A stretch of 64,000 bases of DNA from positions 23 to 64,022 of IMG/VR virus record IMGVR_UViG_3300031565_000018; one strand, 5' to 3'. Shown here in pieces: positions 29,115-63,733 of the stretch; within the stretch, counting starts at the first letter, position 1; each line of letters starts with the position of its first letter. Under the pieces are notes generated by a model, which was not told the DNA's origin, ran no database searches, and saw nothing but the letters and a program-made list of their open reading frames with translations. This stretch comes from a virus. A program made the translations under genes and the position numbers.

Positions 29115-29636
29115 TCAGCGCAGACAAATGTAAGGGTAAGCCTTCATGTGCGCAAGGTCGAAATCGGTAGCGTCTGTAGCACCCTGCACATGAGCGATGA
29201 CACCGTCGAAACCCATACTAGTTGAAGTAATAGGTGTAGCGCTAGCGCCCGTGACTCCAAAAACAGGACCACCTGAGCCTGCGAACGTAAAAGGTGCAGA
29301 GCTTCCAGACGGGTGTGCGTGAGAAGCCATGTTGGCCACTTGATACGAGCCAATCTGAACACCGGACGGTGCTACACCAGATAAGGCAATACGCTTAGTG
29401 GAGTCATGCGCTACACCACGGCTATAGTCATGGCCACGGATATAGATATTGCTCAGGTTAGGTAGATGGATGTTGCTCGCATCACTACCGTAGGTGCCTA
29501 CGGGCCAGATTTCGCTCAGTTCAAAGTACGTAGCACGCGGAAACGACTGACCGTTGCAAAGAGCGAACTCGCGACCATCAGCGGTGGTAAAGGTCGTCCC
29601 TAAGTTAACCGACGAAAGATGAATCTGTCCCTTCAT
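29115..29636 (-). CDS. Tail collar domain protein
   Basis: LCNGQSFPRATYFELSEI...YG...LPNL pattern. Confidence 0.72.
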   Translation of the reverse strand: MKGQIHLSSVNLGTTFTTADGREFALCNGQSFPRATYFELSEIWPVGTYGSDASNIHLPNLSNIYIRGHDYSRGVAHDSTKRIALSGVAPSGVQIGSYQVANMASHAHPSGSSAPFTFAGSGGPVFGVTGASATPITSTSMGFDGVIAHVQGATDATDFDLAHMKAYPYICLR

Positions 29637-29654
29637 GGTCTTCAGATTTTGAGT

Positions 29655-30716
29655 TTATTCTACAACCAAGACGTAGACACAGGTTATGTTGTCAGGTCTG
29701 CTTTCTTCATTAGCTCCGATGCTAGAGAGCGAGCTGTCGGGAGGGTTCTGACTTGAAGTAGCACCAGTAGGTCCACCGCTTCTCTGACCTGTGTAATAGA
29801 AACTGGCTGACGTATAGCCGTGAATATGCGAGGCTATATTGTTAGGCAAAAATCCGCTCGGGCCAGCGGAATGTCCAGAAGGAACTTGAATATCGTAGTA
29901 GGGGGCGCTAATAAAGAGTCCCCGCAGATCAGGAGCGTTGAAAGTTGTCGACCCATCTCCCTGGCCAAAAAGATTGCCGACTAACGTATAAAGATGGGAG
30001 TAAGTTGTCCTGCTAAGCTCCTGCCCACTACAGATAATTGTATTAGGAGGAAGCGCAGCAGCTACTTCAGCAACATCCGGGATTAATAACGGGGCGATTA
30101 AACCCACGGGGGATCTGACATCCGCTGTGGCGATAAGGGGGACCATTTCCATGGTCGCCCCTCGATTACCTTCTTTAGTGCCTTGGAGTTTACTGCTAGA
30201 ACCAAAGTTACCGGCACCGTATCCTCCAGGACTTCCTGGGCTAGCGCCGCCGCCAGACCAGCTATTGGGCTGGCTAAAAGTATGTGTATGGTAAGGAAGA
30301 CGGCCCGTCCCCGAGGCGTTTGTAATCGTAAGACTAGCTTCGTAAGGAAAGGGTTTTAAGTGAATATAGGGTTTCTGAAGATTAGGTAAATTGAAAGTAG
30401 TTAAACCATCCCCTGCGCCGTAATTCTCACCGATGGAGTCGAAAAGATCAGAATATGTAGTACGGGAAACCGCTTGCCCACTTGGAATAAGGTACCCACT
30501 GGGAAGAGACTCAAATGCTGCACCAGAAGCAGCAGCGTAAGTGTATTCTCCAATATTATTGAAAATATACACACTAGGGAAGCTAACCTTAGGCCACTCG
30601 CCAAGTCCTCTCTGGCGTGCAATCTCTGAAGGCGCTTGCCACGAACCGGTAGCAGCGCTCGAACTAGGATCGCTCGCTGAAGGATTACCAGTGTATCCGC
30701 CGTACTTCTTGACCAT
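29655..30716 (-). CDS. Tail fibre protein with two tail collar domains
   Basis: GQAVSRTTYSDLF...GAGDGLTTFNLPNL and GQELSRTTYSHLY...GQGDGSTTFNAPDLRG. Confidence 0.85.
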   Translation of the reverse strand: MVKKYGGYTGNPSASDPSSSAATGSWQAPSEIARQRGLGEWPKVSFPSVYIFNNIGEYTYAAASGAAFESLPSGYLIPSGQAVSRTTYSDLFDSIGENYGAGDGLTTFNLPNLQKPYIHLKPFPYEASLTITNASGTGRLPYHTHTFSQPNSWSGGGASPGSPGGYGAGNFGSSSKLQGTKEGNRGATMEMVPLIATADVRSPVGLIAPLLIPDVAEVAAALPPNTIICSGQELSRTTYSHLYTLVGNLFGQGDGSTTFNAPDLRGLFISAPYYDIQVPSGHSAGPSGFLPNNIASHIHGYTSASFYYTGQRSGGPTGATSSQNPPDSSLSSIGANEESRPDNITCVYVLVVE

Positions 30717-31486
30717 CAGAAGAACTTGTAGTTTGTTCCGATGATGAAATTATAGACTAGATCCATACCGGAAAGTACTGAGGAGCCCGAGGGATAGCAG
30801 GGATTATAGATAACTTGACCGGAAGGATCGATCCCGCTATAAACAGCTATACCGTTGGGATAGTCATATATGTGCTGACCCTCCATCGGCTTTCTGTTTA
30901 AAACCCAATCAGATGGTGGGATAAAATACGGAGCCCATTGAGGGTCCAAACCGATAATAAAACCGTAAGTCTCGTAGGTATATTTCCAAAAGTCTTTTTG
31001 CTTCTCAAAAGCGTCAGTAAGATACTCTTTATAAACAGCGTTTCTAGTGATAGGAGGAAGATTAAAAGAAGGAAGGTCGGCGTTAGTTAATAACTTAGAG
31101 GAGTTAAGAAGAACCCAAGCAGCATCTTTGATGTTATTTAAACAGACAAGAAACTCAGGAGTAGCGTCAGTCAGAATAGCGTTGTTAATACTCTCTATAA
31201 CAGACTGAATGTACTGTCGAATACGAGCGTCTTCAAAAATCGGATCAGGTGACGTATCCCCAACGACAACAATAAAAGTTTTAGTGTCGGCGTCCCACGC
31301 AACAGTGTCAGTGCCCGAAACGGAAGGTACCTCAAAAGGACCTTCATATCCGGCAGCGTTTAAGTCCTCCTTAGTACAAGAATAGGTATAACGGGTATTA
31401 CCGTTAGGAAGACGGATCCTTAGTGGAGGATACGAAGGAGTATCCGCACCCGGTGCTAAGAAAAACTGATTTCTAAAATCCGCCAT
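30716..31486 (-). CDS. Hypothetical fibre-associated protein
   Basis: 256-aa ORF within the fibre cluster. Confidence 0.65.
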   Translation of the reverse strand: MADFRNQFFLAPGADTPSYPPLRIRLPNGNTRYTYSCTKEDLNAAGYEGPFEVPSVSGTDTVAWDADTKTFIVVVGDTSPDPIFEDARIRQYIQSVIESINNAILTDATPEFLVCLNNIKDAAWVLLNSSKLLTNADLPSFNLPPITRNAVYKEYLTDAFEKQKDFWKYTYETYGFIIGLDPQWAPYFIPPSDWVLNRKPMEGQHIYDYPNGIAVYSGIDPSGQVIYNPCYPSGSSVLSGMDLVYNFIIGTNYKFF

Positions 31487-31488
31487 TG

Positions 31489-31812
31489 TTACACCACAAC
31501 GTAGGAAATCTGAACATCAACGGTGCCGCTTGTACTCGTAAGCAGATTCAGCTTACGTCCGCTAGGAAGAACGTACTTATTGCCGAGGACGTCGAGGTTG
31601 GAGTCGGCAGGGATAGCAATCGTATAAGCTAGATAACCTTCATCGTTATTAGATGCATCTCTACGGACCACGGTGATGTCCGTGTTGTCAGTACCGTTAG
31701 TATTAGCGGCTAAAATACTAAGAACAATAGTGCTGTCGGAATCGGACGTGACAGCAGTGATCTCCGCCGCATCATCTACGTTCTTAACAACTTGATTATA
31801 GAAAGTTGCCAT
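31489..31812 (-). CDS. Small beta-sandwich virion protein
   Basis: TIVLSILAAN...YLAYTIAIPA...KYVLPSGRKL; family typically found next to fibre genes. Confidence 0.6.
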   Translation of the reverse strand: MATFYNQVVKNVDDAAEITAVTSDSDSTIVLSILAANTNGTDNTDITVVRRDASNNDEGYLAYTIAIPADSNLDVLGNKYVLPSGRKLNLLTSTSGTVDVQISYVVV

Positions 31813-31864
31813 GAACCCTACGTCGGGTGTACTTGATTAAATTTTAGCAGACCAAAAAGCCTAA

Positions 31865-33370
31865 TCAAGCTAGACCCATGATTAAGCCGATAAGTTGATC
31901 CGCATCAACAGGAGGATTGTTAATAATTAGAGTCAAAGCTGCGTTGCCAGATGCAAGAGCTGTGTCTGCATCTTGGATAAGAGCATTCCCTGAAGCTAAC
32001 GCTGTCTCTGCGTTGAGTACCGCAGTTTCAGCGTAACTAATACCTCCAAGACCACTCGCAATCGCCGTGTTGGAAGTACTAATTGCGGCTAAACCACTGA
32101 CAATCGCAGTGTCAGCTGTCGAAATAGCCGCAAGAGCATCGGTTATACCTGCATTACCCGACGCTTGAGCAGTTTCTACAAGTACTAAAGCGGCATTACC
32201 CGAAGCAAGAGCAACAGAGGCAACCTCCAGAGACGCATTACCAGAAGCAATGGGTGCAGGGGTTAACTCAAGCGCAGCGTTACCAGAAGCTTGAGCAGTA
32301 GCCGATAAAGGATACGAAGCCTGACCCGAAGCAATCGCTACGGAGGCGATAGCTTCCCCAGCTAGACCAGAGGCAATCGCCTCGATCGAATTCTCAATCG
32401 AATCGTCAGAAATGACGAAGACGAATGACGTTTTGACTACTGCATCGTCACCACGGTCGATAGCTTCAACCGAATTTGCCAGAGCTAAGTTACCTGAGGC
32501 CTGCGCCTGAATAGCCTGGAACACAGCTGCGTTACCAGAAGCCAAAGCTGTGCTTGCATCAGTAACTGCAGCGCTTCCTGACGCAAAGGCAATACTTGCA
32601 TTAAGTAAGGAGGCATTACCAGAAGCAAGCGCTACGGCACTATCAGCAAGAGCTGCAGCACCCGAAGCAACTGCCACGGCTGCAACGGTGATTCCGGCAG
32701 AACCGGAAGCAATTGCCGCCTGAGAATCAACAATCGCAGCATCACCAGAGGCAATGGTCGACTGGAGATCAAATAGAGCTGCGTTACCGGAGGCTAAAGC
32801 GGAACCTGCGATAAAAGAGGCACCAAAACCTGACGCGGCAGCGATATTTGCGTCGACAAGAGCAGCGTTCCCAGACGACTGAGCGACTGCGGCATCAACA
32901 AGTGCTGCGTTTCCAGATGCGAGTGCGATCTCGTTGAACGGAATGCCCAGATTGCCTGAAGCCTGAGCGATCTCCCCTGATGCAAGTGCGTTATTAGAAG
33001 TAGTTTGCCCAACAAGAGCTTCGGAAATAGCAGCGTTTCCGGAAGCAAGCGAAGTCTGACTCGCAGCAGACGCCGCTAGACCTGATGCAAGAGCAATTTC
33101 CGAGAAGGCTATCGCAGCAGTACCAGAGGCAGTCGCTACATCACCTGTAGCTAGATCAAGACCGTCAAGTCCGATCTTTCCATCAGCTGTATATAAGAGA
33201 CCTGAGGTCCCAGCAACTACAAGCTGTACAAACCCATCGGTACCTAAAGGAACTAGTCCACCACCTAATCCACTTCCAAGGACTAAGTCGCCAACAATAG
33301 GGATTACGTCCTCGTCGGTATGCTCCGTAATGAAGCCACCGGAATAAATTAGGCCGCGACGAGCAGTCAT
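31865..33370 (-). CDS. Ala-rich fibre/stalk protein with 14-aa ASG repeats, paralogue 2
   Basis: Periodic xALASGNAAxxxxx repeats; C-terminal LIGLIMGLA. Confidence 0.8.
   Translation of the reverse strand: MTARRGLIYSGGFITEHTDEDVIPIVGDLVLGSGLGGGLVPLGTDGFVQLVVAGTSGLLYTADGKIGLDGLDLATGDVATASGTAAIAFSEIALASGLAASAASQTSLASGNAAISEALVGQTTSNNALASGEIAQASGNLGIPFNEIALASGNAALVDAAVAQSSGNAALVDANIAAASGFGASFIAGSALASGNAALFDLQSTIASGDAAIVDSQAAIASGSAGITVAAVAVASGAAALADSAVALASGNASLLNASIAFASGSAAVTDASTALASGNAAVFQAIQAQASGNLALANSVEAIDRGDDAVVKTSFVFVISDDSIENSIEAIASGLAGEAIASVAIASGQASYPLSATAQASGNAALELTPAPIASGNASLEVASVALASGNAALVLVETAQASGNAGITDALAAISTADTAIVSGLAAISTSNTAIASGLGGISYAETAVLNAETALASGNALIQDADTALASGNAALTLIINNPPVDADQLIGLIMGLA
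31925..33145 (-). repeat. Degenerate in-frame 42-nt/14-aa tandem repeat
   Basis: ASG recurs mostly every 14 or 7 residues; boundaries approximate. Confidence 0.75.
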
Positions 33371-33371
33371 A

Positions 33372-34883
33372 TCACGAGAGGGCGATGATCAAACCGATGG
33401 CTTCACCGGTCTGAAGCCCAGGGTTAGCTGCGTAAGCCTCAAGTGCTGCGTTTCCGGATGCTTGAGCTTCGGGAACAATGACGAGACCGGCGTTACCCGA
33501 AGCAAGAGCCGTATTACCGACAACGATGGCGGCGTCCCCAGAAGCAAGTGCAGTATTAGCAAGGACTAATGCAGCATTACCAGAAGACTGAGCGACTGCA
33601 GCATCAACAATCGCGGCATCCCCGGAAGCCTGAGCAGTCTGAGCTAACAGAATCCCCGCATTACCCGAAGAAAGAGCAACCAGACCATCGACAATCGCGG
33701 CGTTTCCAGACGCAAGTGCGATGATTGCTAACTCAATACCAGCGTTACCAGAAGCAGCTGCGCCTGCAAGATCGGCAAGCGCCGCATTACCGGAAGCAAA
33801 AGCAGCTGCAGCAGTCGCTAGAGCAGCATTACCGGAGGCTAAAGCGTCAAGAGAAACGACGACTGAAGCGTTACCAGAAGCCTGAGCACTCTGTGAGAAA
33901 CTTAAGGCAGCATTACCAGAGGCAAGCGCCGTGTCTGCCACAGCGAGGGCAGCCGCACCCGAGGCAAGAGCGACGTTCGAGAGAGTTACAGCTGCATTGC
34001 CAGAGGCAAGAGCAGATGCCGAATCGACTAGAGCCGCATTACCGGAAGCAAGAGCGGCCTGAGAGTCAAACAGCGCAGCGTTACCAGAAGCCAGTGCAGC
34101 GACTGAAACTTCAACAGCAGCAATACCAGAAGCAAGAGCTTCTGACGAGTTAGTTAAGGCAGCGTTGCCTGAGGCAAGCGCGTCCACAGAGATCGAGAGA
34201 CTCGCGTTACCGGAACTGAGAGCTGCGACAGCGTCGGTAAGGGCAGCGTTACCCGAGGAAAGTGCAGTATTACTGTCGGCTAATGCAGCGTTGCCAGAGG
34301 CAAGTGCCTCAACAGAAACAACTAGACCAGCATTACCCGAAGCAAGAGCCGTAGAGGCGAGGAGAATCCCAGCGTTTCCGGAAGCTAAGGCGGTTGCACT
34401 GTCGACAAGACCCGCGTTACCCGAGGCAAGCGCTGCAACACCAATAGATAGGGAGGCGTTACCGGAACTTAAAGCCGATTCAGCAACGAGTAAGGCAGCA
34501 TTACCAGAGGCAATCGCAGTCGCAGCCTCTACAAGACCAGCGTTACCAGAAGAAAGAGCTACTGCAGAATCAACTAAAGCTGCATTACCAGAAGCAAGAG
34601 CAGCAGTAGCGTTACTTAAAGCTGCATTACCGGAAGCGAGGGCATCTTCCGAGCGCTTTAAAGCGACACCATCAATAGCTAATTCGTCACCGGCAAAAAT
34701 TAAACCGCTTGCCGAAGCAGTTAAAGCGACATCTAAACGAATGGTGGCATCAGTATTACCGCCACCGACTAGGCCACTACCAGCAGTAAGTTCTCCGCCA
34801 GAAGCAGTGGTGATGATGCTGTCACCAAAAGGGAGCTCAGCTAACGCTCCACTAACTAAAACAACTGGCCTTCTTAAAACCAT
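33372..34883 (-). CDS. Ala-rich fibre/stalk protein with 14-aa ASG repeats, paralogue 1
   Basis: 29 consecutive 14-aa units; C-terminal GEAIGLIIALS. Confidence 0.82.
   Translation of the reverse strand: MVLRRPVVLVSGALAELPFGDSIITTASGGELTAGSGLVGGGNTDATIRLDVALTASASGLIFAGDELAIDGVALKRSEDALASGNAALSNATAALASGNAALVDSAVALSSGNAGLVEAATAIASGNAALLVAESALSSGNASLSIGVAALASGNAGLVDSATALASGNAGILLASTALASGNAGLVVSVEALASGNAALADSNTALSSGNAALTDAVAALSSGNASLSISVDALASGNAALTNSSEALASGIAAVEVSVAALASGNAALFDSQAALASGNAALVDSASALASGNAAVTLSNVALASGAAALAVADTALASGNAALSFSQSAQASGNASVVVSLDALASGNAALATAAAAFASGNAALADLAGAAASGNAGIELAIIALASGNAAIVDGLVALSSGNAGILLAQTAQASGDAAIVDAAVAQSSGNAALVLANTALASGDAAIVVGNTALASGNAGLVIVPEAQASGNAALEAYAANPGLQTGEAIGLIIALS
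33430..34646 (-). repeat. 29 in-frame 42-nt/14-aa tandem repeats (xALASGNAALxxxx)
   Basis: Counted by hand; no break in period; synonymous sites diverged. Confidence 0.9.
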
Positions 34884-34894
34884 GATCTAGTCTC

Positions 34895-35410
34895 CTAGCC
34901 CCCAGTATAAAGAAGAACAGGTGGAGCAATCTCCACACTAAGTTGAGTTGACGTCAAAGCCAAACCAACTGGTGTAGCTGCCGCATAAGCATTCGAGCCA
35001 GAACCTGTAACGGTGCCCGAAGCTGTCTCATAGCGGACAACTTCGCCCTGATATTTAGAAAGGTAGTAGTACTGACCAGGGATTAAAGCTGTTTCTGCAG
35101 TGATATTTCTTGCGCTAAGCGTAACCACGCCGTCTAAATTAATGATTACCGAGCTTCCGTTCGAAGCAGCGGCACTAGCGAAGCCAATCGGTGAGAACTG
35201 AGTTACGTCAGCTCCACTAATTGCTATAGCAGGAACAACAAAGTTTCCGCTTGCCGAAACACATTCACCAGCAACTAAATCTCCACCCGCCGTAAGCGTT
35301 GCTTCAGGAGCTGGATTAGTTACGACACCTTGCCCGTTAGCAAGGTATACAGTTGTACCGTCAGCTTGGTAACTGGTGTAATTTCGGTTGAAAATCGACC
35401 TGTTTGACAC
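34895..35410 (-). CDS. Virion protein, DUF2190/cement-like
   Basis: AGGDLVAGECVS...IGFA..AASNG..V.I.LDG pattern. Confidence 0.5.
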   Translation of the reverse strand: MSNRSIFNRNYTSYQADGTTVYLANGQGVVTNPAPEATLTAGGDLVAGECVSASGNFVVPAIAISGADVTQFSPIGFASAAASNGSSVIINLDGVVTLSARNITAETALIPGQYYYLSKYQGEVVRYETASGTVTGSGSNAYAAATPVGLALTSTQLSVEIAPPVLLYTGG

Positions 35411-35448
35411 CGGTCACAACCCTACGTTGCTTCATATTCTACACCTTA

Positions 35449-35841
35449 TCAAAGAGCTCCACTGACAACATATCTAGGCTCAACTGGTGAAACTTTTAAG
35501 GTTGTCGGACTAATAGCTGTGCCGATCTGAGTTAAATAAGAACCAGAAACTCCGATCTGATTAAACTCAACAATAAAGGTGTCGTAATCAACTGCGTAAG
35601 CTCCACTAGGACTTACGTAGTACCGATGACCAGGATTCAGGCCACTAAAAGCTTGAGCACCAGCGTCAGAGACCACACGGCACAAAGTCCCGGCTGACAC
35701 TGCATCTACAGCGACACCAACAACCGTCGCCGAAGGGATACCCGAGGGATGAGCGGGAATAATTTGACCAGAAGTAGTGGTGCTGATCGTGACCGCATCA
35801 CCAAGAGCGATGGCTTCAGCAGCGATAAACGATAAAAGCAC
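35449..35841 (-). CDS. Virion protein, DUF2190/cement-like paralogue
   Basis: AAEAIALGDAVTI...VGVAVDAVSAG...GL.PG.RYY pattern. Confidence 0.5.
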   Translation of the reverse strand: MLLSFIAAEAIALGDAVTISTTTSGQIIPAHPSGIPSATVVGVAVDAVSAGTLCRVVSDAGAQAFSGLNPGHRYYVSPSGAYAVDYDTFIVEFNQIGVSGSYLTQIGTAISPTTLKVSPVEPRYVVSGAL

Positions 35842-35868
35842 AGCTACTTCCAGTCCTAACTATTAACT

Positions 35869-35988: not shown

Positions 35989-36013
35989 TGAACTCTTAGG
36001 GATCGCTCAGAGG

Positions 36014-37336: not shown

Positions 37337-37412
37337 TGAACAAGTCTAGATCTTACCCTCCTGTAATCTCGATTCTACCCCACCTAAAAACGTATAAGTA
37401 ATCTTCAGATAG

Positions 37413-37949: not shown

Positions 37950-37966
37950 ACAGTGCGTTTAAGCGC

Positions 37967-43563: not shown

Positions 43564-44103
43564 ATGACTTCCTCCAGCGCTTTAGATATGTTCGCAGAAG
43601 CTTTGGAAGCCCCTAAGGCTGAGGTCCTTACCGAGGAAGTCATCATCAAGAAGGAGACCAGCGTAGATAATCTCGTCTATGCCACGGTCTCCTTTTCTTC
43701 GTATCTGTATCAGTTAAACACCCAAGCGCATCTCCTGCACTTAAACGTCGAGTGCCGAGAGTTTCTTGCTCTCCATAAGTTTCTGAAGAAACAGTACGAA
43801 CAACACATCGCGGACTTTGATCTGCTTGCCGAAATTGTCCGGAGCATGGATTATCTGCTGCCGTCTTGTCAGTGCGGGCTTATGGACTCGTACAAGAAAT
43901 TTAAGAGCGTTAAGTCCTATGACGCTCGTGAAGGTCTAATGATCTACACCAAGAACCTAGAAGACGGAGGGATGATGGCAAAGGACTTGACCGAACAAGC
44001 CCGCGCTACCGGTACTCCCGATCTAGAAAACGCCGCTGCAGGTGTCTGCGGAAACCTCTTTAAAGGAGCGTGGATGCTTAAAGCGACTCTGCGTAACGCT
44101 TAA
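43564..44103 (+). CDS. dps: Dps/ferritin-like protein
   Basis: QAHLLHLNV...LALHKFL...DLLAEIVR (ferroxidase H, H, D, E), C-terminal WMLKA. Confidence 0.82.
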   Translation: MTSSSALDMFAEALEAPKAEVLTEEVIIKKETSVDNLVYATVSFSSYLYQLNTQAHLLHLNVECREFLALHKFLKKQYEQHIADFDLLAEIVRSMDYLLPSCQCGLMDSYKKFKSVKSYDAREGLMIYTKNLEDGGMMAKDLTEQARATGTPDLENAAAGVCGNLFKGAWMLKATLRNA

Positions 44104-52142: not shown

Positions 52143-53258
52143 TTAAGCGTCGAAAGAGTAACCAACGGTGACGAAGTCAGCGTTCAGGAGTTCGAAACCT
52201 GCGTACAGGCTCCAAATCATCATGATGAAGCGGCTGAAATCGTCGTTGTTGTTGAGGAGCACCTGGGCATTGTTGCCACCGATGCCAACGCCAACGGCCT
52301 GGGGACCAAAGAAGATACCGACAGCTGCGTTGTAATCAGCGGCGGTAGCAGCGATGGTCGCGTTCTGGGTTTGGGTAGGCATGTTGGTCGATTCGAAGAA
52401 TCGCACGCCTTCAAACACGAAGCCGGTGGGCATGATGGGCTCGCCAGCCACGAAGGTGGCTTGACCGAAGCCCTGACCCATGTACAGCGCAGCGTTGGGC
52501 TGCATGCCGGACATGAGGGGGTTGATCTGACCGTTGCCAGGGTAACGAGCAACTTCGCGGAAGTCGCTGTTCTGACGCAGGTGCATCAGGAAGGTGGGAT
52601 CGCAAACGCAGCGATAGAAACCATCCTGGAAGGTGGGGGTGTTCCGCTTACGCAGGGACTTGACCACGCGGAGGAGGTCGTCCTTGACGTCGAACTTAGC
52701 TTGCTCGGCGTTGGTGTAAGTCAGAGCACCGGTAGCCAGATCGCCGGGGAAGTAGTAACCACCCTGGGAATCAGTGGCTTGACCCTTGGAGACAGCTTTC
52801 AGGAGTTCGTTGATGAACACCCGATCACGCCACCGACGGTAGTCATCCAGCAGAGTCAGGCTGCCGATGGACTGGTGGAAGGTGGTGAGGTTGCCGGTGT
52901 CCAGCAGAAGACGCTGGGCGGTGATCAGAGTCTCGCGAGCAATCTTAAAGGTGCTCGGCTGAGTCGGATCGGACGGGTCGGCAGGTCCGGTGTACTCCTT
53001 AAGAGTAACCAGAACCTTGTCTTTCACGATATTGCGGCTGTTTGCAGTACCGATGGTCTGCTCAGCAGTGCGCTCGCGAGATTCTTTGGAGCCGGGGTTA
53101 CCGAAGAAGCGGTAACGATCCAGTTGTACAGTCTGGCCGGGTTGCTTCGAGAAATCGTGAACAACCACAGGCTCCGCAGCCATCTCAACGATGTATGCGG
53201 GGTGCGGACGGTACAGTTCAGCACCAAGAATCTTCGGAAAATCATTATCGATAAACAT
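52143..53258 (-). CDS. Major capsid protein
   Basis: 371 aa; DFSKQPGQTVQL, EYTGP, VCDP, FEGVRFFES patterns typical of HK97-fold N4-gp56-like MCPs; strongest codon bias in the window; position. Confidence 0.82.
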   Translation of the reverse strand: MFIDNDFPKILGAELYRPHPAYIVEMAAEPVVVHDFSKQPGQTVQLDRYRFFGNPGSKESRERTAEQTIGTANSRNIVKDKVLVTLKEYTGPADPSDPTQPSTFKIARETLITAQRLLLDTGNLTTFHQSIGSLTLLDDYRRWRDRVFINELLKAVSKGQATDSQGGYYFPGDLATGALTYTNAEQAKFDVKDDLLRVVKSLRKRNTPTFQDGFYRCVCDPTFLMHLRQNSDFREVARYPGNGQINPLMSGMQPNAALYMGQGFGQATFVAGEPIMPTGFVFEGVRFFESTNMPTQTQNATIAATAADYNAAVGIFFGPQAVGVGIGGNNAQVLLNNNDDFSRFIMMIWSLYAGFELLNADFVTVGYSFDA

Positions 53259-54714: not shown

Positions 54715-54740
54715 AAAAAACCCCTCCTTTTCAGGAGAGG
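54715..54740 (-). terminator. Intrinsic terminator after the scaffold gene
   Basis: Minus strand CCTCTCCT-GAAA-AGGAGGGG then TTTTTT. Confidence 0.8.
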
Positions 54741-54762
54741 CTGATCACCTAGTTTTTCTGAA

Positions 54763-55692
54763 TCAAGCGGCGTCCATGAACAGAAGCTTGCTACGCAGAG
54801 CTTCGGGCTGCATACCGCTGAGATAACGCCAGGCGTTCTCAGGGCTGCGGTTCATGACATCGCTGAATTGCTCCCACTGGTGTTGAGGAGCTGCACCCTG
54901 CTGCTGACCACCAACGTTGGCGGGAGGGGCAGGCATGTCGTACTGCGGCTTATAAGCCGCAGGAGCTTGCTGAGCCACAGGTGCTTCATCGATATCGACG
55001 GGAACGACTTCGGTGAAGAAACGATCGGTGTAATTAGCGAGATGATCCGGGCTAGTCAGGATCGTCTGCATGGCGTTGTGACGCTCAGTCAGATTGTCAA
55101 ACTCGCCAGCCTGATTGATCAGAAGATCTTCCAGTGCGCAAGCGTACTGGTTCAGGATGCCAGGAGCCTCAATACCGAAGTGGTTAACGACGGCTTGAGT
55201 TGCGTCGCTGAGACCGTTGGCGCCGTTCGTCTGGGCCGTAGAAGCCTGAGAGGAAAGCGGGGTCTGTGAGGCGTTGGTAGACGAGGTCTGCGCTACCTGC
55301 TGTTCCTGGTAAGCCCAGGGCTGGGCCTGTAAATTCTGACTGTTCTGTTGAGTAGCCAGCTGAGGTGCCGCCTGGGAGAGCGACTGTGGTGCCTGGCTGA
55401 GGGATTGCGAGTTGACCTGGGACAGGACCCGCTCCAGGGAACCCATCGCTGCTTCCCAAGGATTGCTCGGGGAGGAGCTGGACGTTAACTGGCTGAACTG
55501 GTTGCTGGAAGAAGGGACCGTAGCCGGTGCCACCTGCGACGGCGGTTGGGCTGTAGGTACCGAAGCTACCGCCGGGGTAGCTGTTTGCGCCACCCACTGC
55601 GGGTAGGCGGTTGAGCCCTGGTCCGAGGTTGCCGCCGGGGCTGCCGCCGGGGAGACCGGGCTCGGGGTCGAAGCTTGGATCTGCTGGCTCAT
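54763..55692 (-). CDS. Putative capsid scaffolding protein
   Basis: Q/A/P/S-rich with helical C-terminus, between portal and MCP. Confidence 0.6.
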   Translation of the reverse strand: MSQQIQASTPSPVSPAAAPAATSDQGSTAYPQWVAQTATPAVASVPTAQPPSQVAPATVPSSSNQFSQLTSSSSPSNPWEAAMGSLERVLSQVNSQSLSQAPQSLSQAAPQLATQQNSQNLQAQPWAYQEQQVAQTSSTNASQTPLSSQASTAQTNGANGLSDATQAVVNHFGIEAPGILNQYACALEDLLINQAGEFDNLTERHNAMQTILTSPDHLANYTDRFFTEVVPVDIDEAPVAQQAPAAYKPQYDMPAPPANVGGQQQGAAPQHQWEQFSDVMNRSPENAWRYLSGMQPEALRSKLLFMDAA

Positions 55693-57424
55693 AGCTACCC
55701 GAGTAGGTTAATTCTTCCGCTAGGTGATCGAATGTCCTGTAAAGGAGCGGAGTGATATTCAGTCTAGGATCAGCCGCAAGCGGTTGGTTAGGCGCAAGCG
55801 GATGTGGAGACTGCAACATCTGGGATAATAATACCAGAAATTGTTGCATTGCAGATTGAGTCTGTTGCACCATGCGGAAGGGGAAACCCTTCAACATTTC
55901 AGCTCTTTCAGAGTCAGTTTTTTCGGGGAAAAGGAACTTCAGAGCTTCGACGCTGTGTACACCTAACTCCTGCAGGTTCCTGACCACGACTGACTTCTGC
56001 TGCACGTCATATGCAGTGTCCTCGTAAACATCTCCCTGATATCGGTAATCAACTTCTCGATCACCATCCTCAGGAAGACCCACCACGCCTAGTGGTACTT
56101 TGTTTTCCGCGAGAGCTTGTTTCATAACCGCATCGAGTTTTTGCTCGAAGCGCATTACGGCTCTTTGATACTTCTCGGTTGCTTCTTGATCCGCGTCATT
56201 AGCGGGCGGTTTGGGTTCTTTAAGCCCACTAGCCAGCAAAAATGACTCACGGAAGATAGTCTCCTGGTGATAAATCATCATCTCCAGAAGACGGCAGAAA
56301 CCGTAGATAAGGAAACTCTTATTTTTACGAAGTGCGGTCGCTTGGGCACGACCCATCAGACCTTTGATCTCAGTTGCCGTGGCACCCGCCGAAATAGAGA
56401 TCTCGTCAACACCGCCAAGAGCTGTACGAATTTCTTCTCGCAAAAGCAACGTGTAACGGTTCATATCACCGTTAACCGGGTCTGGCGTCATGTAACCGAC
56501 GCGATCAGACGCCTCAACGTTGGCGATGATCCGAGGAACTCGGAGACCACCGCCCATAGCAGTGCCAAAAGGCTCGCTTACTCGAGTAGAGGGCGAGTCC
56601 ATGCCCGCAAAACCACTCTGACTGCTGATGGTCGGGCGGAAATTGCTCTGGCTATCACCTGCTTCGACCAGATCGCTACGAGGACGAGAGCTGATGAGCG
56701 TGGGGTTACCGAAAAACTCGATATTTTTGGCGATATTGCGAGTCAGTTGGTCATGAAGCACGATCTGCTCCATGAAGGGGTCGAATTCACCCTCACCTTC
56801 CGTCCCACTTGCGCTGGGTTTGTTTAAAACCTCCACAGCGGGGATAAACCCAAGCGTATTGGGGCGATTTTTGGCTGGAGTTAGAACAGAACCCGGTTCT
56901 AAGTCGAAACTAAGCTCTGTATCAGTCTCAATCTCACTAATTGTTTCGGCAGTAATAGAAAGTCGGACGTATCGCTTGTTTTGACCGGACGTAGTGCTCG
57001 GTAAACCAAGGCTACCCGCCTTAACCTTGTAGCTATAGATAATGATGACTTCTTCGACCTCACCATTCAGGTCGTGATAGACCCGGTACTGGTTCTTGTT
57101 GAAGAAATAGATTTGATATTTGAGTTTTGCGTCTGGCCGAAAGTAAAAAAGACCGCAACCGTCGATTAAAAAGTTCCGAATAATCGCTGGAAAGCGAATA
57201 TCGATCTTATTGAGGGTAATTACATCGTCGAGAAACCTAGTTCGACTCTTATAGGTGTCTTGATCGCAGTAAAAAGTCAGACCCTTCTTGATCATCAAGA
57301 GGACCATCTGCTGAATATGACTCAGCACAACCATCGTGGACGATTGGCTGCTTCGATCCTGAGTGCGAGCCGCCTCAAGAATCTCTGAAAACCTATTTCG
57401 AGTATCTGCGGAGGCGGTCGACAT
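55184..57424 (-). CDS. Portal protein with long Gly/Pro-rich C-terminal extension
   Basis: Size and position between terminase and scaffold/MCP; GFIPAVEV.N...EGEF pattern of portals. Confidence 0.75.
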   Translation of the reverse strand: MSTASADTRNRFSEILEAARTQDRSSQSSTMVVLSHIQQMVLLMIKKGLTFYCDQDTYKSRTRFLDDVITLNKIDIRFPAIIRNFLIDGCGLFYFRPDAKLKYQIYFFNKNQYRVYHDLNGEVEEVIIIYSYKVKAGSLGLPSTTSGQNKRYVRLSITAETISEIETDTELSFDLEPGSVLTPAKNRPNTLGFIPAVEVLNKPSASGTEGEGEFDPFMEQIVLHDQLTRNIAKNIEFFGNPTLISSRPRSDLVEAGDSQSNFRPTISSQSGFAGMDSPSTRVSEPFGTAMGGGLRVPRIIANVEASDRVGYMTPDPVNGDMNRYTLLLREEIRTALGGVDEISISAGATATEIKGLMGRAQATALRKNKSFLIYGFCRLLEMMIYHQETIFRESFLLASGLKEPKPPANDADQEATEKYQRAVMRFEQKLDAVMKQALAENKVPLGVVGLPEDGDREVDYRYQGDVYEDTAYDVQQKSVVVRNLQELGVHSVEALKFLFPEKTDSERAEMLKGFPFRMVQQTQSAMQQFLVLLSQMLQSPHPLAPNQPLAADPRLNITPLLYRTFDHLAEELTYSGSYEPADPSFDPEPGLPGGSPGGNLGPGLNRLPAVGGANSYPGGSFGTYSPTAVAGGTGYGPFFQQPVQPVNVQLLPEQSLGSSDGFPGAGPVPGQLAIPQPGTTVALPGGTSAGYSTEQSEFTGPALGLPGTAGSADLVYQRLTDPAFLSGFYGPDERRQRSQRRNSSRR

Positions 57425-57457
57425 TCATTTATTAGATAAGTGGACCCTTAGTCGGGA

Positions 57458-59227: not shown

Positions 59228-59259
59228 GCTGGCAGCATCAAGACTGCCAACATACTAGT

Positions 59260-59553
59260 TCAACCTGCTTCAGTTAAGTACTTTCCTGCTCGACGTTTAG
59301 CCCTGGACATAATTTCTCTGTCTTGCTCAAGGGCGTCAACGGGACCCTCGACACCATCGCCGTAAGTAACAGTCGGAGTAGAGGGTGCTTGAGGAGTGGG
59401 TTGCCCGATCAGTTCAGAATCTTCGTCAGCCGACATCTGAGCGAAAGCCGAGTCAGCAGTTTGATTAGCCCGACGCTGTTGGTCAGCTGCAAAAACTTGA
59501 TCCTGGTAGGCCTTAGAGAAGTTAAAGGCGTAGGGAACAAATTGATTAGCCAT
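59260..59553 (-). CDS. Hypothetical protein
   Basis: 97-aa ORF. Confidence 0.62.
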   Translation of the reverse strand: MANQFVPYAFNFSKAYQDQVFAADQQRRANQTADSAFAQMSADEDSELIGQPTPQAPSTPTVTYGDGVEGPVDALEQDREIMSRAKRRAGKYLTEAG

Positions 59554-59825
59554 CAGTAAAGCACCTTGACACTGTCGACATTGCCGCCGCTAATAGCTGT
59601 GGCTGCGAAGGGAAGTACCTTGTTTGCACCAACCTCAGCAAGAATCCACTGGCCTGGAGCGTCGTTCAACTCGATGTAAAAGGTGTCGGTAGCGTCCCCT
59701 TCGATATATAAACCACGGCAGGTACTAAACCGCTTCTCCCCGTCAGCAGGTGCCCAGGCAAAACCGCTCGCATACGGCAGACTGGCCTGCTGAGGAAAGA
59801 CAGAACCAAAAGCGCGGATATCCAT
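59553..59825 (-). CDS. Small beta-rich protein, possibly virion
   Basis: CRGLYIEG...LPFAATAI pattern. Confidence 0.6.
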   Translation of the reverse strand: MDIRAFGSVFPQQASLPYASGFAWAPADGEKRFSTCRGLYIEGDATDTFYIELNDAPGQWILAEVGANKVLPFAATAISGGNVDSVKVLY

Positions 59826-59848
59826 AAGTAAGAAGCCTCAGTAATAGT

Positions 59849-60070
59849 TTAACCTTCTTGCTCAGCAATTTCGATGAGCTTGTTTATATACCATGCACAC
59901 TTTTTGAGATCCTCAACACCGTTCTTGTGCTCGGTGCGCCATAGATACTTAATCGCCGAACCTCGGCAAAACCCTTTAAACCCTTCAGGTCCAAGAGACG
60001 CCCTCAGAGCATCGATGCATTCGATCTCACCTTGATTGTAATGAGACGGATGAGAGACACGATCGCTCAT
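59849..60070 (-). CDS. DUF3310 (SaV / T7 gp1.7-like) protein
   Basis: VSHPSHY.QG.IECID...FCRGSAIKYLWR..HKNGVEDLKK. Confidence 0.88.
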   Translation of the reverse strand: MSDRVSHPSHYNQGEIECIDALRASLGPEGFKGFCRGSAIKYLWRTEHKNGVEDLKKCAWYINKLIEIAEQEG

Positions 60071-60984
60071 ACAACGAACATCTCAGAAATATCCATGAGG
60101 GTACCATCCTCATCAGCTAGAAGCGTGCTGTACTTTTTATCTAAATGCTCCACTAGGCCACAGGGGGCGATGACAACCTTATCTTTGTCTCTCACAACTG
60201 GCACCACTCGACGATGTTCCTGCCCTTGCCTAAGTCCCTCAAAGGCAAGTCCCATAGAACTTCTGTCGGCAATCGGCCAACAACGGTGACGAGTCAGTTC
60301 GAAACTTCTGGCTGAGTCACAGCTCTGCGAATAGATATAAGTCTCCGCCATCTTCTGATCCAGGACCATTAGACCCATGTAGGGGTTACCCAGAGAGACA
60401 AAACCCAGGAGATTCAGCGTGGGCGTCAGATACGCCTGCACTTGATAAGGTCGATCACCCCAAACATCTGGCGTAGGTCCCGTCAAACGCCATTTTCTGT
60501 AGTTATCAAACGGAACGCATTTATGGTCGTACCGCTCATAACGGCAGAAACCTGGCTCAAGATTTAACGGCTTAAGGAACTGACGGTAAGTTAACCAATA
60601 GATATAGTGCTCACTGGTGAACACCATGTCATTTTCGCTGTAGACATAGATGTCATAAGACTTGGTTTCAACAGCCAACTTCAGTGTCGGTTTGTGTGAC
60701 CAGCAAAGAGCAAACCCCTGATACTCAGGACCCGCAACCAGAACACACAGACTCAGTGTCTCGAGGTTCGGTTCAAGAACCGCTAAGAGGGTCTCCTTAT
60801 CCTGTTTGTGCTCATGATCGATATAGATAAAAACATCCTTTTGAGCAGCAGGGATCTCCTCATAACCCCTCAAGACCTCTAAGAGCTGATCGACACGTGA
60901 AAGTGGGTCGTGAGCGGTGATGTTGAACATCACCCTGTAAGTGTTCATTACAGCTGCGTCGTAACGCCAGGATTCCACGATCAT
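60067..60984 (-). CDS. Probable GT-A fold glycosyltransferase
   Basis: YDIYVYSENDM resembles a DxD-type motif; lies in the GT cluster. Tentative. Confidence 0.45.
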   Translation of the reverse strand: MIVESWRYDAAVMNTYRVMFNITAHDPLSRVDQLLEVLRGYEEIPAAQKDVFIYIDHEHKQDKETLLAVLEPNLETLSLCVLVAGPEYQGFALCWSHKPTLKLAVETKSYDIYVYSENDMVFTSEHYIYWLTYRQFLKPLNLEPGFCRYERYDHKCVPFDNYRKWRLTGPTPDVWGDRPYQVQAYLTPTLNLLGFVSLGNPYMGLMVLDQKMAETYIYSQSCDSARSFELTRHRCWPIADRSSMGLAFEGLRQGQEHRRVVPVVRDKDKVVIAPCGLVEHLDKKYSTLLADEDGTLMDISEMFVV

Positions 60985-60987
60985 TGA

Positions 60988-62511
60988 TCAGTACTCCGTG
61001 TGGTAGTTACCACGGCGCTGCAGGAAACACACGAGGTGTGTATAAGCGTCAAGCAAGTCGTCGTGAGAGGTGGCACCGATGTTAATAATCTGATCAAAGA
61101 GCTGATCAAATCTTCGAAACCGGTTGAAGACCACCTTCTTGTTCTCCAGAAGCCCAAGGGTACCCCTGAACCGAGCGATCTTGTCTCCTCTGAAGCCTTT
61201 CACTTCATGAATGTGAAGATTCCCAAGGCCCCACTCGTTCAACATCACTCGTTTTAGATCTGCTGCAAGCGATGCTTGGTAAGCCACGGACTCAACCACA
61301 AGGCTGCAGGTGGAATACGTAGGGAAGTACTGCCCTTCAGTGTTTTCTTGAAGAATCCCCCACTCAATAAGCATCTTGCACAAAAGATCGATCTTCTCAA
61401 GGTTCCCAATCGATCGAACCTGATGGGCATCAATGATGTAGTACTGATCTTTGACTCTCCCTCCAAGAACAAAAGCGGTGTAATCAGAGGTTTCGTTCTT
61501 ACTCGCTGAGAGGTCGATTCCGACAGCAAGAGAATCAAACTCCGTAACAACATCTCCCTTCACCAGGAGATCTGGCGAAAGGATCAGATCCGAAGTCATC
61601 ACTGGTTGCTGCTGGTACTGGAAGGCGAATGCCACGGGGTCCAGCTCCTTCTGCCCGAGCAAGTACTCAACACTCCACTGCTCAGGCCAATAACTCACAG
61701 CCTCACCAGCGTTGTCATATGTAAGTGCTTCCTGCTGAACCTGCTTCCAGCCCTTCTCAGGCACGAACATCGTTTTATGGATGTCGAGGGGGTGGAATCG
61801 AGTACCTAGGCAGATAGCTCGACCACCTTCAAAAATAATCGGAGCGATAACCGAGCTCCAATTACCGTTCATCTCCTCCCTAATCGAAGGGTTTTTAATG
61901 TCAGTGCTCGATTTAATAGGGTCATCCACGATGACCAAGTGGGCACGTTTCGACGTGATCGAGCCTCGAAGACCTGTTGCTCGGAGGGTAAATTCTTCAT
62001 CGCCCACTCGGCTGATGCCTGCGTAGTCGAAATCGATCGACCAACCAATATCCGACTGCATGCCAGCACGCAGTTGAACCTTTGGGAAGATTTTCTTAAA
62101 TGTTGCAGAGTCGATGATCTGCTTAATAATTCGACTCTTCGGAATTGCTGTAGCGATGTTGTATGAGCAGTAAATGATCTGGAGCGGAAGGCCAGCAGTT
62201 GTATGCCTACCGATAATCCAGGCAGTGAACATATTAAGCACCGTGGACTTTGCAGAGCCTCGTGGAGCAAGGATGTCCAGATTGGAGCCTGCAATATCTA
62301 GTAAGTATCTATTGCTCTCACCTGTAATCAAATGCTTGTGCCACTCCAGCATATGAGCTGCAGGAGCTTTATCCATAATGGTACAGAACGTATGGAAGTC
62401 CTGTGATGCTCTAGTAAATATAGTATCTAACTCAGGTGCATCTGACTCAACAGCCTTAATAGCTCTAAGTTTTAGAGCACGTCGATACGCAAAACTCTCT
62501 CTACTCGGCAT
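60988..62511 (-). CDS. terL: Terminase large subunit
   Basis: Walker A APRGSAKST, Walker B LVIVDD, GTRFH, nuclease GIDLS...DYTA...HDDLLDA. Confidence 0.93.
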   Translation of the reverse strand: MPSRESFAYRRALKLRAIKAVESDAPELDTIFTRASQDFHTFCTIMDKAPAAHMLEWHKHLITGESNRYLLDIAGSNLDILAPRGSAKSTVLNMFTAWIIGRHTTAGLPLQIIYCSYNIATAIPKSRIIKQIIDSATFKKIFPKVQLRAGMQSDIGWSIDFDYAGISRVGDEEFTLRATGLRGSITSKRAHLVIVDDPIKSSTDIKNPSIREEMNGNWSSVIAPIIFEGGRAICLGTRFHPLDIHKTMFVPEKGWKQVQQEALTYDNAGEAVSYWPEQWSVEYLLGQKELDPVAFAFQYQQQPVMTSDLILSPDLLVKGDVVTEFDSLAVGIDLSASKNETSDYTAFVLGGRVKDQYYIIDAHQVRSIGNLEKIDLLCKMLIEWGILQENTEGQYFPTYSTCSLVVESVAYQASLAADLKRVMLNEWGLGNLHIHEVKGFRGDKIARFRGTLGLLENKKVVFNRFRRFDQLFDQIINIGATSHDDLLDAYTHLVCFLQRRGNYHTEY

Positions 62512-62560
62512 GTTCTTTAAAAAACTGTCTGTATACTGTCAGAAAGATTTTAACCCTGGC

Positions 62561-63733
62561 ATGGCCAAAATTCTTTGGTACGGAGATATCCTTTCGAACA
62601 CTGGCTTTGCTCGTGTAACACACAGTATTCTTGAGCACCTCGCGAAGGATAACGAGATTGTCGCTTTTGGAATTAACTACACCGGAGATCCTCACGACCT
62701 TCCTTTTAAGGTCTACCCAGCCTCTGCGCTGAACCCCAGCGATCGTTTCGGTATTCATCGTCTGCCTCTTGTCGTGCAACAAGAGAATCCAGATTTCGTC
62801 ATCTGCCTGAACGACATCTGGATGGTGAATCAGGTGTGGGAGAGAATTCACCTCCTGAAGTCATCGATGAAGTTCAAGTTCATCGCTTACTTCCCCATCG
62901 ATAGCGAGTGGTACATCGAAAACCACATGCGGTTTATCAAGGACTGGGATTTCGCGATCACATTCTCGATCGAGCAAGCTCAGCGAATTATAAAACATGG
63001 GGTCAAACCCAAGATGCTCGGGGTTATTCCCCATGGCTTAGACACTGGTAAGTTCCACGCTCTCGATAGAGATGAGTGCCGGAAGAAACTCAGTCTCCCT
63101 CTCGATAAATTTATTGTCCTTAACGCCAACAGGAACCAACCTCGCAAGAACATCGACCTAACGATCAAAACCTTCGTTAAGTTCGCAAAAGATAAACCTG
63201 ATGCTTCGCTCTACCTGCATATGAGCGAGAAAGATCTCGGTTGGGATGTACGAGCCATCTTTAACACCGAAATGAAGCGTGCTGGTCTCGACCCAGACCA
63301 ACGGTTAATCATGACCGCAAACAATATTGATTACACAAACGCCCCACCCGACGAGCTACTAAACATCATCTATAACGCTTGCGACGTGGGGCTTAACACC
63401 TGTAACGGTGAAGGCTGGGGGCTCGTGCCTTTCGAGCACGCGATTTGCAAAAAGCCTCAAGTCATGCCGAACCACACGTCATGCTCTGACGTCTGGAAGG
63501 GCAAAGCTCTACTGGCCGATGTCGCTGCCTGGATCTATGACAAGGATTTAGGGGTTGAACGTGGGATCGTCGACGTAGATGACGCGGCAGAAAAACTCTC
63601 GACGTTGTACGAGGACAAAGAGTTTTATAAGAAAGTAGCCGACGATTGTTTTGAGGTGACTCAGAACCCCTCTTACCGTTGGGACAAGATCGCTGAAGGT
63701 TTCGAAAAGGCCATGCAGGAGCTGTCCAAATGA
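62561..63733 (+). CDS. GT4 (GT-B fold) glycosyltransferase
   Basis: ATG 62561; TGFARV, IPHGLD, NRNQPRK, EGWGLVPFE (EX7E motif). Confidence 0.88.
   Translation: MAKILWYGDILSNTGFARVTHSILEHLAKDNEIVAFGINYTGDPHDLPFKVYPASALNPSDRFGIHRLPLVVQQENPDFVICLNDIWMVNQVWERIHLLKSSMKFKFIAYFPIDSEWYIENHMRFIKDWDFAITFSIEQAQRIIKHGVKPKMLGVIPHGLDTGKFHALDRDECRKKLSLPLDKFIVLNANRNQPRKNIDLTIKTFVKFAKDKPDASLYLHMSEKDLGWDVRAIFNTEMKRAGLDPDQRLIMTANNIDYTNAPPDELLNIIYNACDVGLNTCNGEGWGLVPFEHAICKKPQVMPNHTSCSDVWKGKALLADVAAWIYDKDLGVERGIVDVDDAAEKLSTLYEDKEFYKKVADDCFEVTQNPSYRWDKIAEGFEKAMQELSK

Follow-up and report, generated by a model that had tools for sequence, protein, structure and literature searches.

Glycosylation of the virion has been described in the mycobacteriophages Corndog, Che8 and Myrna (Freeman et al. 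2023, as summarised in PMC12363180). The Corndog proteins gp35-38, a methyltransferase and three glycosyltransferases, are encoded in the head operon, just upstream of the gene of the major head protein. Among chloroviruses, NY-2A encodes a glycosyltransferase, B736L, that binds GDP-mannose and whose acceptor is unknown; the capsid glycan of NY-2A contains no mannose (PMC9614988). The DNA analysed here, a stretch of 64,000 nucleotides called the window below, corresponds to positions 23-64022 of the 66,477-bp linear IMG/VR virus record IMGVR_UViG_3300031565_000018, whose completeness is estimated at 82% by CheckV. It carries a cluster of sugar enzyme genes around those of the large terminase subunit (TerL) and the portal, and it encodes fibres that are rich in the dipeptide Ser-Gly (SG). 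A preliminary description of the window had proposed that these enzymes build glycans on the serines of the SG dipeptides. The explanation favoured here, with a probability of roughly 0.45, has two separate parts: the SG dipeptides would be the signature of a repeat forming the fibre shaft and, separately, the enzymes would build a glycan whose likeliest target is a virion protein.

Two further systems are relevant to the dipeptide. The Ser-Gly xylosylation of proteoglycans requires a xylosyltransferase of family GT14 and acidic flanks. The heads of YadA-like adhesins are left-handed parallel beta-rolls that have a repeat period of 14 residues and the repeat motif NSVAIG.

A regular repeat behind the Ser-Gly excess

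The SG counts of the preliminary description are all exact: 33 in fibre A, 20 in the Gly/Ser-rich fibre-like protein, 10 in the minor-tail-protein-like product, 9 in the collar fibre (29655-30716) and 6 in the smaller of two cement-like proteins (35449-35841; other coordinates are given in Table 1). Fibre B, whose gene is absent from that list, contains 29. Compared with 5000 composition-preserving shuffles of each protein, fibres A and B greatly exceed the expected number of about 7 (z = 10.8 and 9.8, respectively), and the reverse dipeptide GS is not enriched in them (1 and 4 occurrences). Lower values are obtained for the Gly/Ser-rich protein (5.1), the product of 30716-31486 (4.2), the smaller cement-like protein (4.1) and the minor-tail-protein-like product (3.2). 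The excess is not significant in the collar fibre (z 1.6) and is absent from the major capsid protein (1 SG, z -0.4) and the portal (z 0.3); most other structural proteins are likewise not significant. The 38 non-structural genes, when pooled, have 37 SG for 45 expected. As a yardstick, the structural proteins J, H and E of phage lambda reach a z of about 2 only. These z-scores indicate that the strong SG signal is confined to two genes and that the remainder is modest. The proposed overuse of SG in fibre and virion proteins therefore holds for the two repeat fibres and several tail proteins, but not for the collar fibre, the major capsid protein or the portal. The milder excess of the other tail proteins reflects the abundance of Gly and Ser that is usual in fibre proteins.

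The excess of the two fibres is due to a perfectly periodic 14-residue unit, ALASGNAALxxxxx. In fibre A, SG recurs at exactly 14 residues 28 consecutive times, which gives 29 units with the consensus A-L-A-S-G-N-A-A/G-L/I followed by five variable residues. The conservation of the unit was assessed on four orthologous fibres of 503 residues (65-74% identity), which align without any gap and provide 29 x 4 = 116 repeat instances. Ser4 and Gly5 are unchanged in 116/116 of them. Full conservation among the four orthologues is found in 83% of the repeats for Ala1, 72% for Asn6 and 62% for Leu2, and in only 0-21% for positions 10-14. The serine had been described as essentially invariant among varying neighbours; it is indeed invariant, but the glycine is equally so and the nine-residue core is conserved overall.

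The units of fibre A encode their serine by all six codons (TCN and AGY). They share 58% nucleotide identity, and the same core residue is encoded by an identical codon in only 39% of the comparisons. This codon diversity indicates that the motif is maintained by selection at the protein level and not by homogenisation of the DNA. A matrix scan of 121 homologous proteins detected 714 units with spacings of 14 (527 cases), 28 (48) and 21 (40) residues, each of which is a multiple of 7. As the matrix was built from the repeats of the window itself, the Ser and Gly frequencies that it returns are biased; the alignment of the four orthologues is free of this bias.

Modular organization of the fibres

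The fibres belong to a modular family. They share a conserved N-terminal domain of about 70 residues (M..RRP.V.VSG...ELP.GD...AGSGL.GGG), followed by a shaft in which the unit occurs from 2 to about 30 times. The C-terminal end varies: it may be a short hydrophobic tag, a Laminin_G_3 domain or a beta-rich domain of large size. Orthologues that have identical ends exist as 209-residue and 503-residue forms, a clear polymorphism of shaft length. The hydrophobic tag, IGLI[I/M][A/G]L[S/A/G], ends three fibres of the window whose shafts differ (fibres A and B and the Gly/Ser-rich protein), and it recurs on orthologues in related genomes, including short forms of 207-209 residues. A tag common to the three fibres suggests a shared docking partner.

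The repeat fibres of the window match no Pfam or PHROG family, and no meaningful solved homologue was found by sequence or profile. A tblastn search of 50,697 phage records gave one marginal match, to a faecal phage, although the low-complexity filter may hide other matches. Among the contigs that could be placed, the fibre family is restricted to the clade related to the cyanophage S-EIV1 that is described below.

The two small proteins encoded just upstream of the fibres (34895-35841) reach 18.6 bits with Phage_cement_2, below the cut-off, and weakly resemble, in pairwise comparison, the basal part of the head fibre of phi29 (E 0.004). The proximity of such cement-like genes is weak evidence that the repeat fibres might be head fibres rather than tail fibres.

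Fold of the fibre shaft

An AlphaFold model of the fibre, computed as a monomer from a 29-sequence alignment, has a mean predicted local distance difference test value (pLDDT) of 60 and served as a lead only. Residues 72-201 are modelled as one long helix (pLDDT about 75), and residues 207-475 as stacked 5-residue strands connected by 2-residue turns. Spacing in sevens, an alanine content of 32% and the fact that the helix has the better pLDDT point to a helical coiled coil. However, the hydropathy spectrum of the repeat has a power of 292 at period 7 and of only 9.6 at period 3.5, for 96 at period 2.0 and moderate values across 2.0-2.33; because of the weak 3.5-residue signal, a canonical coiled coil was not adopted for the shaft. 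The helix-turn-helix stem of the phi29 head fibre was also considered as a model of the shaft and set aside, as no sequence resemblance was seen.

The top fold matches of the model are left-handed beta-rolls or beta-helices: the YadA-like heads of BpaC, UspA1 and BoaA, the ryegrass ice-binding protein and LpxD. The matched PDB entries include 7o23 (E 5e-3), 3pr7 and 3s6l (YadA-like heads) and 3ult (ryegrass). One homologue of the fibre passes the cut-off of PF21300, the ryegrass antifreeze beta-roll (32 bits for a cut-off of 30); the protein of the window does not. A beta-roll like that of YadA heads or antifreeze proteins is tentatively, and only slightly, favoured over an Ala-rich helical supercoil. 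Under either fold, the ALASGNAAL unit is a rigid structural repeat. The most economical explanation would be that Ser-Gly(-Asn) forms a tight turn or a packing contact in a regular 7/14-residue fold, and structure alone probably accounts for the conservation of SG.

The sugar enzymes and their conservation in the clade

According to the preliminary description, two GT17-like genes, one GT4, one probable GT-A and one possible GH130-like gene flank the terminase and portal genes. Both GT17-like products score far above the PF04724 cut-off (59.7 and 58.5 bits for a cut-off of 26), and orthologues from four other genomes of the clade pass it too. The motifs D105-x-D107-E108 (SDCDE) and GWHxS do not vary among 26 aligned sequences, even in the distant ones of phages GMA2 and S-H68. 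These proteins begin directly with the catalytic domain and have no N-terminal membrane anchor, and hence are apparently soluble. The characterised GT17 enzyme of eukaryotes catalyses beta-1,4 transfer of N-acetylglucosamine (GlcNAc) to a beta-mannoside. No GT17 structure was found by sequence in PDB.

The probable GT-A enzyme (p305) is substantiated by a confident predicted fold and by the invariance of Glu117 and Asp119. Its AlphaFold model (pLDDT 90.9) has a GT-A fold with Z 10.5-11.7 over about 200 residues and a Foldseek E of 1e-6. Foldseek returned 349 PDB matches at E <= 0.001, with GT-A enzymes making up nearly all of the top 50 listed; p305 resembles a wide range of them without any specific nearest relative. 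As it has no Pfam match, no CAZy family is assigned.

The GT4 assignment is borne out both by a PF00534 score above the cut-off and by a solved GT-B relative. The only solved relative found is B736L of chlorovirus NY-2A (3OY2; E 2e-24 over 364 residues, positions 75-438). The reading frames listed for TerL and GT4 overlap by 134 nt at their 5' ends (62378-62511); since the S-EIV1 homologue of GT4 aligns only from residue 64, the true start of GT4 is probably located downstream. The possible GH130-like gene is present next to GT4, but its PF04041 score (15.6 bits for a cut-off of 26, E 0.008) is too weak for it to be counted as a member of the family. Atlas clusters that have PF04041 in 13-37% of their members provide a lead only, and no match was found by sequence in PDB. 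As a whole, the glycan enzymes appear to be soluble, as judged from their alignments.

The portal gene product has a single protein match, Synechococcus phage S-EIV1 (47% identity in the best segment). It has at least 455 relatives in IMG/VR, the best 80 of which share 79-97% identity with it. The window is therefore a member of a large uncultured clade related to S-EIV1. At the nucleotide level, the 14 kb of the structural region between 44000 and 58000 have no megablast match among the 50,697 phage records. The genus-level group that contains S-EIV1 represents about 3% of marine cyanophage reads (Nishimura et al., PMC5332604).

The comparisons of synteny rest on these best 80 portal loci, searched by tblastn, and on nine near-complete genomes. 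The order GT4/TerL/GT-A/GT17/portal is kept in essentially every contig that extends far enough. The nine near-complete genomes all carry GT17, GT-A, GT4 and GH130-like genes, whose products share 42-79% identity with those of the window; for the capsid proteins the identity is 91-98%. The gene succession is also preserved in a more divergent contig (GT4, 507-aa gene, 290-aa gene, small genes, GT17, GT17). In most members of the clade GT17 is present only once: four complete relatives (L012, L028, L057 and L069) have just one copy by Pfam, and in eight near-complete genomes the two paralogues of the window correspond to the same gene. As far as these genomes indicate, the duplication of GT17 is specific to a subclade. 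No convincing terminator was found on the minus strand from TerL to the portal gene, the first one being located further downstream (Table 1). Because of this and of the kept gene order, the enzymes look like a part of the late packaging operon; they appear to be co-transcribed with the terminase and portal genes. The set of enzymes noticed around these two genes is thus real, and it is conserved throughout the clade, in about 80 related contigs.

S-EIV1 lacks the GT17, GT-A and GH130-like genes and only has a homologue of GT4. This gene (8075-9343 of KJ410740), annotated as a "glycosyl transferase group I", encodes a product with 40% identity to the GT4 of the window and adjoins the primase gene, not the terminase gene. 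The B736L-like GT4 would thus appear to be common to S-EIV1 and the clade, and the rest of the cluster to be found only in the clade.

Outside of this lineage, Gordonia phage GMA2 (NC_070761), which is unrelated to the window, has an unannotated gene (3971-4774) encoding a GT17-like protein of 267 residues between those of the large terminase and the portal. Its score is just below the cut-off (24.8 bits), and it shares the DxD and GWHxS motifs. Among GT17-like genes from 5118 representative clusters, most are carried by contigs too short to show any context; one repeats the arrangement with TerL.

Possible targets of the enzymes

Taken together, these data can be arranged in the following scheme. 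The fibre would be made of an N-terminal domain that attaches it to the virion, a shaft of 14-residue units and either a receptor-binding domain or a hydrophobic tag; Ser-Gly, the most constrained point of the unit, would form a tight turn or contact in a regular fold. The enzymes, i.e. one or two GT17, the GT-A, the GT4 and the GH130-like protein, would cooperate late in infection to produce a short glycan, of which mannose and GlcNAc are possible components. The likeliest target would be a virion protein that, as in Corndog, receives its sugars in the cytoplasm, either prior to assembly or in the course of it. The location of a multi-enzyme cluster in a packaging/head operon, its presence throughout the clade and its Corndog-like layout make a virion-directed glycan a reasonable leading hypothesis; by this analogy, the chance that the cluster glycosylates some virion protein may be put slightly short of even. 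In mycobacteriophages, Ser/Thr-rich capsid tails are acceptors. No clade-specific tail of this kind that could be a candidate acceptor was seen in the alignment with the capsid protein of S-EIV1.

Several observations weigh against this two-part explanation. Concerning the shaft, the low-confidence model folds identical repeats in two ways, as a helix and as strands; the fold matches obtained from this pLDDT-60 model have template modelling scores (TM-scores) of only 0.19-0.25; and Pfam Hep_Hag gives no match to the fibres of the window. Furthermore, the serine of the unit is never replaced by Thr, Ala or Asn, which is stricter than most structural repeats need and leaves room for a functional site. 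Concerning the enzymes, the capsid protein of S-EIV1 is 69% identical to that of the window, yet its GT17, GT-A and GH130-like genes are missing, which means that the shared head structure does not need the cluster. The enzymes of the window have no BLASTP similarity to gp36-38 of Corndog (best E 0.018 over 38 residues). Lastly, GT17 homologues (about 25% identity) of the T4-like cyanophages S-H68, S-B05, S-B43 and others lie inside islands of dTDP-rhamnose (deoxysugar), GT11 and GT25 genes, a context that also favours the action on host glycans considered below.

The over-strict serine is one of the arguments that could be put forward for the original proposal, in which the invariant serines of the ALASGNAAL units and the SG of other tail proteins are acceptors of O-glycosylation and the fibres are mucin-like and coated with sugars. 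No positions of the repeat are better conserved than Ser4 and Gly5, which are more strictly kept than the hydrophobic Leu, and the motif is under selection at the protein level; however, conservation extends beyond the serine to Gly, Asn and the Ala and Leu around them, as expected for a structural unit. The enzymes are located in the late operon, and the GT-A matches of p305 include the direct protein glycosylators ColGalT1, LH3, ppGalNAc-Ts and XylT1, but these score no better than enzymes of polysaccharide or teichoic acid synthesis, and XylT1 is only one of hundreds of generic fold matches, with 10% identity. Neither the four glyco-enzyme genes of the window nor the GH130-like gene returned a GT14-type family in Pfam scans, and the SG of the repeats lack acidic flanks, with only 0.28 acidic residues within 4 positions. 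Fibres and enzymes do co-occur clade-wide and in nine out of nine near-complete genomes, and the ASGNAAL fibres are missing from S-EIV1, as are the GT17, GT-A and GH130-like genes. However, every long record with the fibre family has the portal or the gene order of the clade, and every genome of the clade has the enzymes. As both traits are clade-wide, their co-occurrence is not independent evidence and does not discriminate between explanations: it amounts to one phylogenetic contrast, S-EIV1, which has almost no weight. Moreover, the enzyme set of the near-complete genomes is constant although their motif matches range from 4 to 43 per genome, and the fibre-like proteins of S-EIV1 are still SG/TG-rich despite the missing genes, one of them having 25 SG for 6 GS on a VTGTTANFTSG-type repeat. 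The sole evidence for SG as acceptor is co-occurrence within one clade, and structure is a simpler explanation of the dipeptide. Given the missing GT14 match, the non-acidic flanks, the rigid repeat and the absence of any SG excess in the capsid and portal proteins, this claim is not supported. Sugar-coated fibres of the mucin type are improbable, and a glycan of mannose and GlcNAc added by the phage enzymes to the serine of every 14-residue unit, with up to about 30 sites per chain, is distinctly so. What stands of the preliminary interpretation is a real glycan cluster with a plausible virion target.

If the fibres are unrelated to the enzymes, the target could also be located outside of the virion. 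The cluster might remodel a surface glycan of the cyanobacterial host late in infection, such as the O-antigen of the lipopolysaccharide (LPS), an exopolysaccharide or the glycan of an S-layer or pilin, and this could mask receptors and spare the progeny from loss on debris or on infected cells. In addition to the islands mentioned above, which in cyanophages are usually interpreted as devices of cell-surface modification (PMC12801897), other GT17-like genes adjoin sugar O-methyltransferase genes in short metagenomic contigs, and polysaccharides are typically assembled by enzymes such as GT4 and GT2-like ones. Nevertheless, surface-modification islands of phages are usually variable and accessory, whereas the cluster examined here is a fixed syntenic core of the packaging operon throughout the clade. 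Its enzymes show no membrane anchor in alignments, and no gene for a flippase, a polymerase, a lipid-carrier transferase or nucleotide-sugar synthesis was found in the Pfam and PHROG scans of the window, many open reading frames of which were unmatched or unscanned. An action on host glycans is thus considered unlikely. Glycosylation of the phage DNA on hypermodified bases, as a protection against restriction like that of T-even phages, is highly improbable. DNA is the classical substrate of phage glycosyltransferases, the genes adjoin packaging genes, and DNA has been raised as a possible target of cyanophage glycosyltransferases (PMC12801897). However, no hydroxymethylase or base-hypermodification gene was seen, the nucleotide genes being the ordinary ThyX, family A polymerase and D5-type primase-helicase, and a set of four to five enzymes exceeds what known sugar modifications of DNA need. 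GT17, B736L-like GT4 and GH130-like enzymes are not known to be among the families of DNA glucosyltransferases. The preferred explanation remains the one in two parts, namely a structural repeat in the fibre shaft and a separate cluster directed at a virion protein.

Genome layout and other features

The left half of the window carries the replication genes (family A polymerase, D5-type primase-helicase and ThyX) and the endolysin gene; the right half carries the morphogenesis module on the minus strand. The features considered in this work are listed in Table 1.

Table 1. Positions of the fibre, virion and sugar enzyme genes and of the terminator-like hairpin in the window
Feature	Positions	Strand	Characteristics
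Tail-collar-domain fibre (353 aa) and collar-like protein (173 aa)	29115..30716	-	PF07484, E 1e-31; SG z 1.6 and 1.3
Fibre B, 501 aa	31865..33370	-	Paralogue of fibre A; more degenerate repeat series, similar C-terminal tag
Fibre A, 503 aa	33372..34883	-	N-terminal attachment domain, 29 uninterrupted 14-aa units, hydrophobic C-terminal tag ...IGLIIALS
Two small proteins, 171 and 130 aa	34895..35841 (34895-35410, 35449-35841)	-	Just upstream of the fibres; weakly like capsid cement/decoration proteins
Gly/Ser-rich fibre-like protein, 440 aa	36014..37336	-	AGSG....SSG.Y.I beta-type motifs, same tag; 20 SG and 12 GS, both raised
Minor-tail-protein-like, 214 aa	44100..44744	-	phrog_356, E 4e-16; run of 7-residue ASGAxxx units
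Major capsid protein	52143..53258	-	1 SG, no Ser/Thr-rich tail
Terminator-like hairpin	54719..54742	-	First convincing one downstream of TerL, glycosyltransferase and portal genes; GC-rich stem followed by a T run
Portal	55184..57424	-	phrog_20475, E 2e-162; directly downstream of the GT17 pair
GT17-like a, 270 aa	57609..58421	-	PF04724, E 3e-16; Pfam alignment begins at profile position 76/348
GT17-like b, 268 aa	58421..59227	-	PF04724, E 8e-16; tandem paralogue of a, 56% identity, one-base frame overlap
GT-A-fold glycosyltransferase (p305), 305 aa	60067..60984	-	Confident model; Glu117 and Asp119 (motif TENDM) invariant
Large terminase subunit (TerL)	60988..62511	-	Terminase_6C; 53% identical to the terminase of S-EIV1; flanked on both sides by genes of the enzyme set
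GT4 (GT-B), 451 aa as listed	62378..63733	+	PF00534, 34.5 bits for a cut-off of 26.4; divergent from TerL
GH130-like gene (start), 361 aa	63730..64000	+	Overlaps the GT4 stop by 4 nt; ends at about 64815, about 815 nt beyond the window

Two other genes of the window deserve mention. A lysis protein of 413 residues (23468-24709) is a fusion of a phage lysozyme domain with a C39-like papain-type peptidase, and the fusion is also found in one relative. A ferritin/Dps-like gene (43564-44103) is located on the opposite strand within the tail module, and it is kept in S-EIV1 (47% identity) and in relatives.

Significance

S-EIV1-like phages are an abundant and almost uncultured lineage of cyanophages from oceans and lakes. 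If the two-part explanation is true, the fixed module of four to five enzymes would represent, in cyanophages, the equivalent of a virion glycosylation that until now has been proven only in a few actinobacteriophages and giant algal viruses, and it would provide the first functional context for the GT17 and B736L-type enzymes of viruses of prokaryotes. Mucin-like fibres, if they exist, would give an abundant aquatic cyanophage lineage sugar-coated fibres for adhesion or shielding; they would involve the first protein-glycosylating GT17 outside eukaryotes and make up the first glycosylated cyanophage virion. The value of the present check is mainly negative in this respect, as the link between fibres and enzymes is not based on evidence at present. 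Two separate features of moderate interest emerge: a fibre-shaft repeat that had not been described and a clade-wide glycan module of unusual enzyme families in a late operon. The ALASGNAAL shaft is very regular, and its length polymorphism makes it suitable for structural work on the tuning of fibre length in phages.

Comparison with known systems

The likeness to the Ser-Gly xylosylation of proteoglycans by XylT1/2 (GT14) is limited to the dipeptide. The latter system is eukaryotic, operates in the Golgi and needs an acidic context, whereas the repeats of the window are non-acidic. The YadA-like heads and the ryegrass ice-binding beta-roll (PF21300) have in common with the fibre shaft a period of 14 (7+7), an abundance of Ala, Ser, Gly and Asn in the repeats and small residues that do not vary. 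Together they provide the top fold matches of the fibre model, weak as these are. YadA-like heads also belong to adhesin or fibre proteins, but their motif NSVAIG is different from the ALASGNAAL consensus.

Concerning the enzymes, B736L of chlorovirus NY-2A and A546L of PBCV-1 (3OY2, 3OY7) are, like the GT4 of the window, virus-encoded and apparently soluble GT-B enzymes. The hosts of chloroviruses are algae. As the acceptor of B736L is not known and the capsid glycan is free of mannose, this homology does not identify the target of GT4.

The layout of the cluster was compared with that of one phage with reported virion glycosylation, Corndog. The glycosylation genes of mycobacteriophages (gp35-38 of Corndog, gp110 of Che8 and the cassettes of Myrna) resemble those of the window in that several glycosyltransferases are encoded in a head operon, close to terminase, portal or capsid genes, and are conserved within a lineage. 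The enzyme families differ, those of the window being GT17, B736L-like GT4 and GH130-like, as do the hosts, an actinobacterium in one case and presumably a cyanobacterium in the other. The reported targets are capsid and tail-tube proteins and not fibre repeats (PMC12363180), and glycosylation, which is proven for the Corndog type, is here a prediction. The resemblance of the cluster to that of Corndog is one of layout, not of descent.

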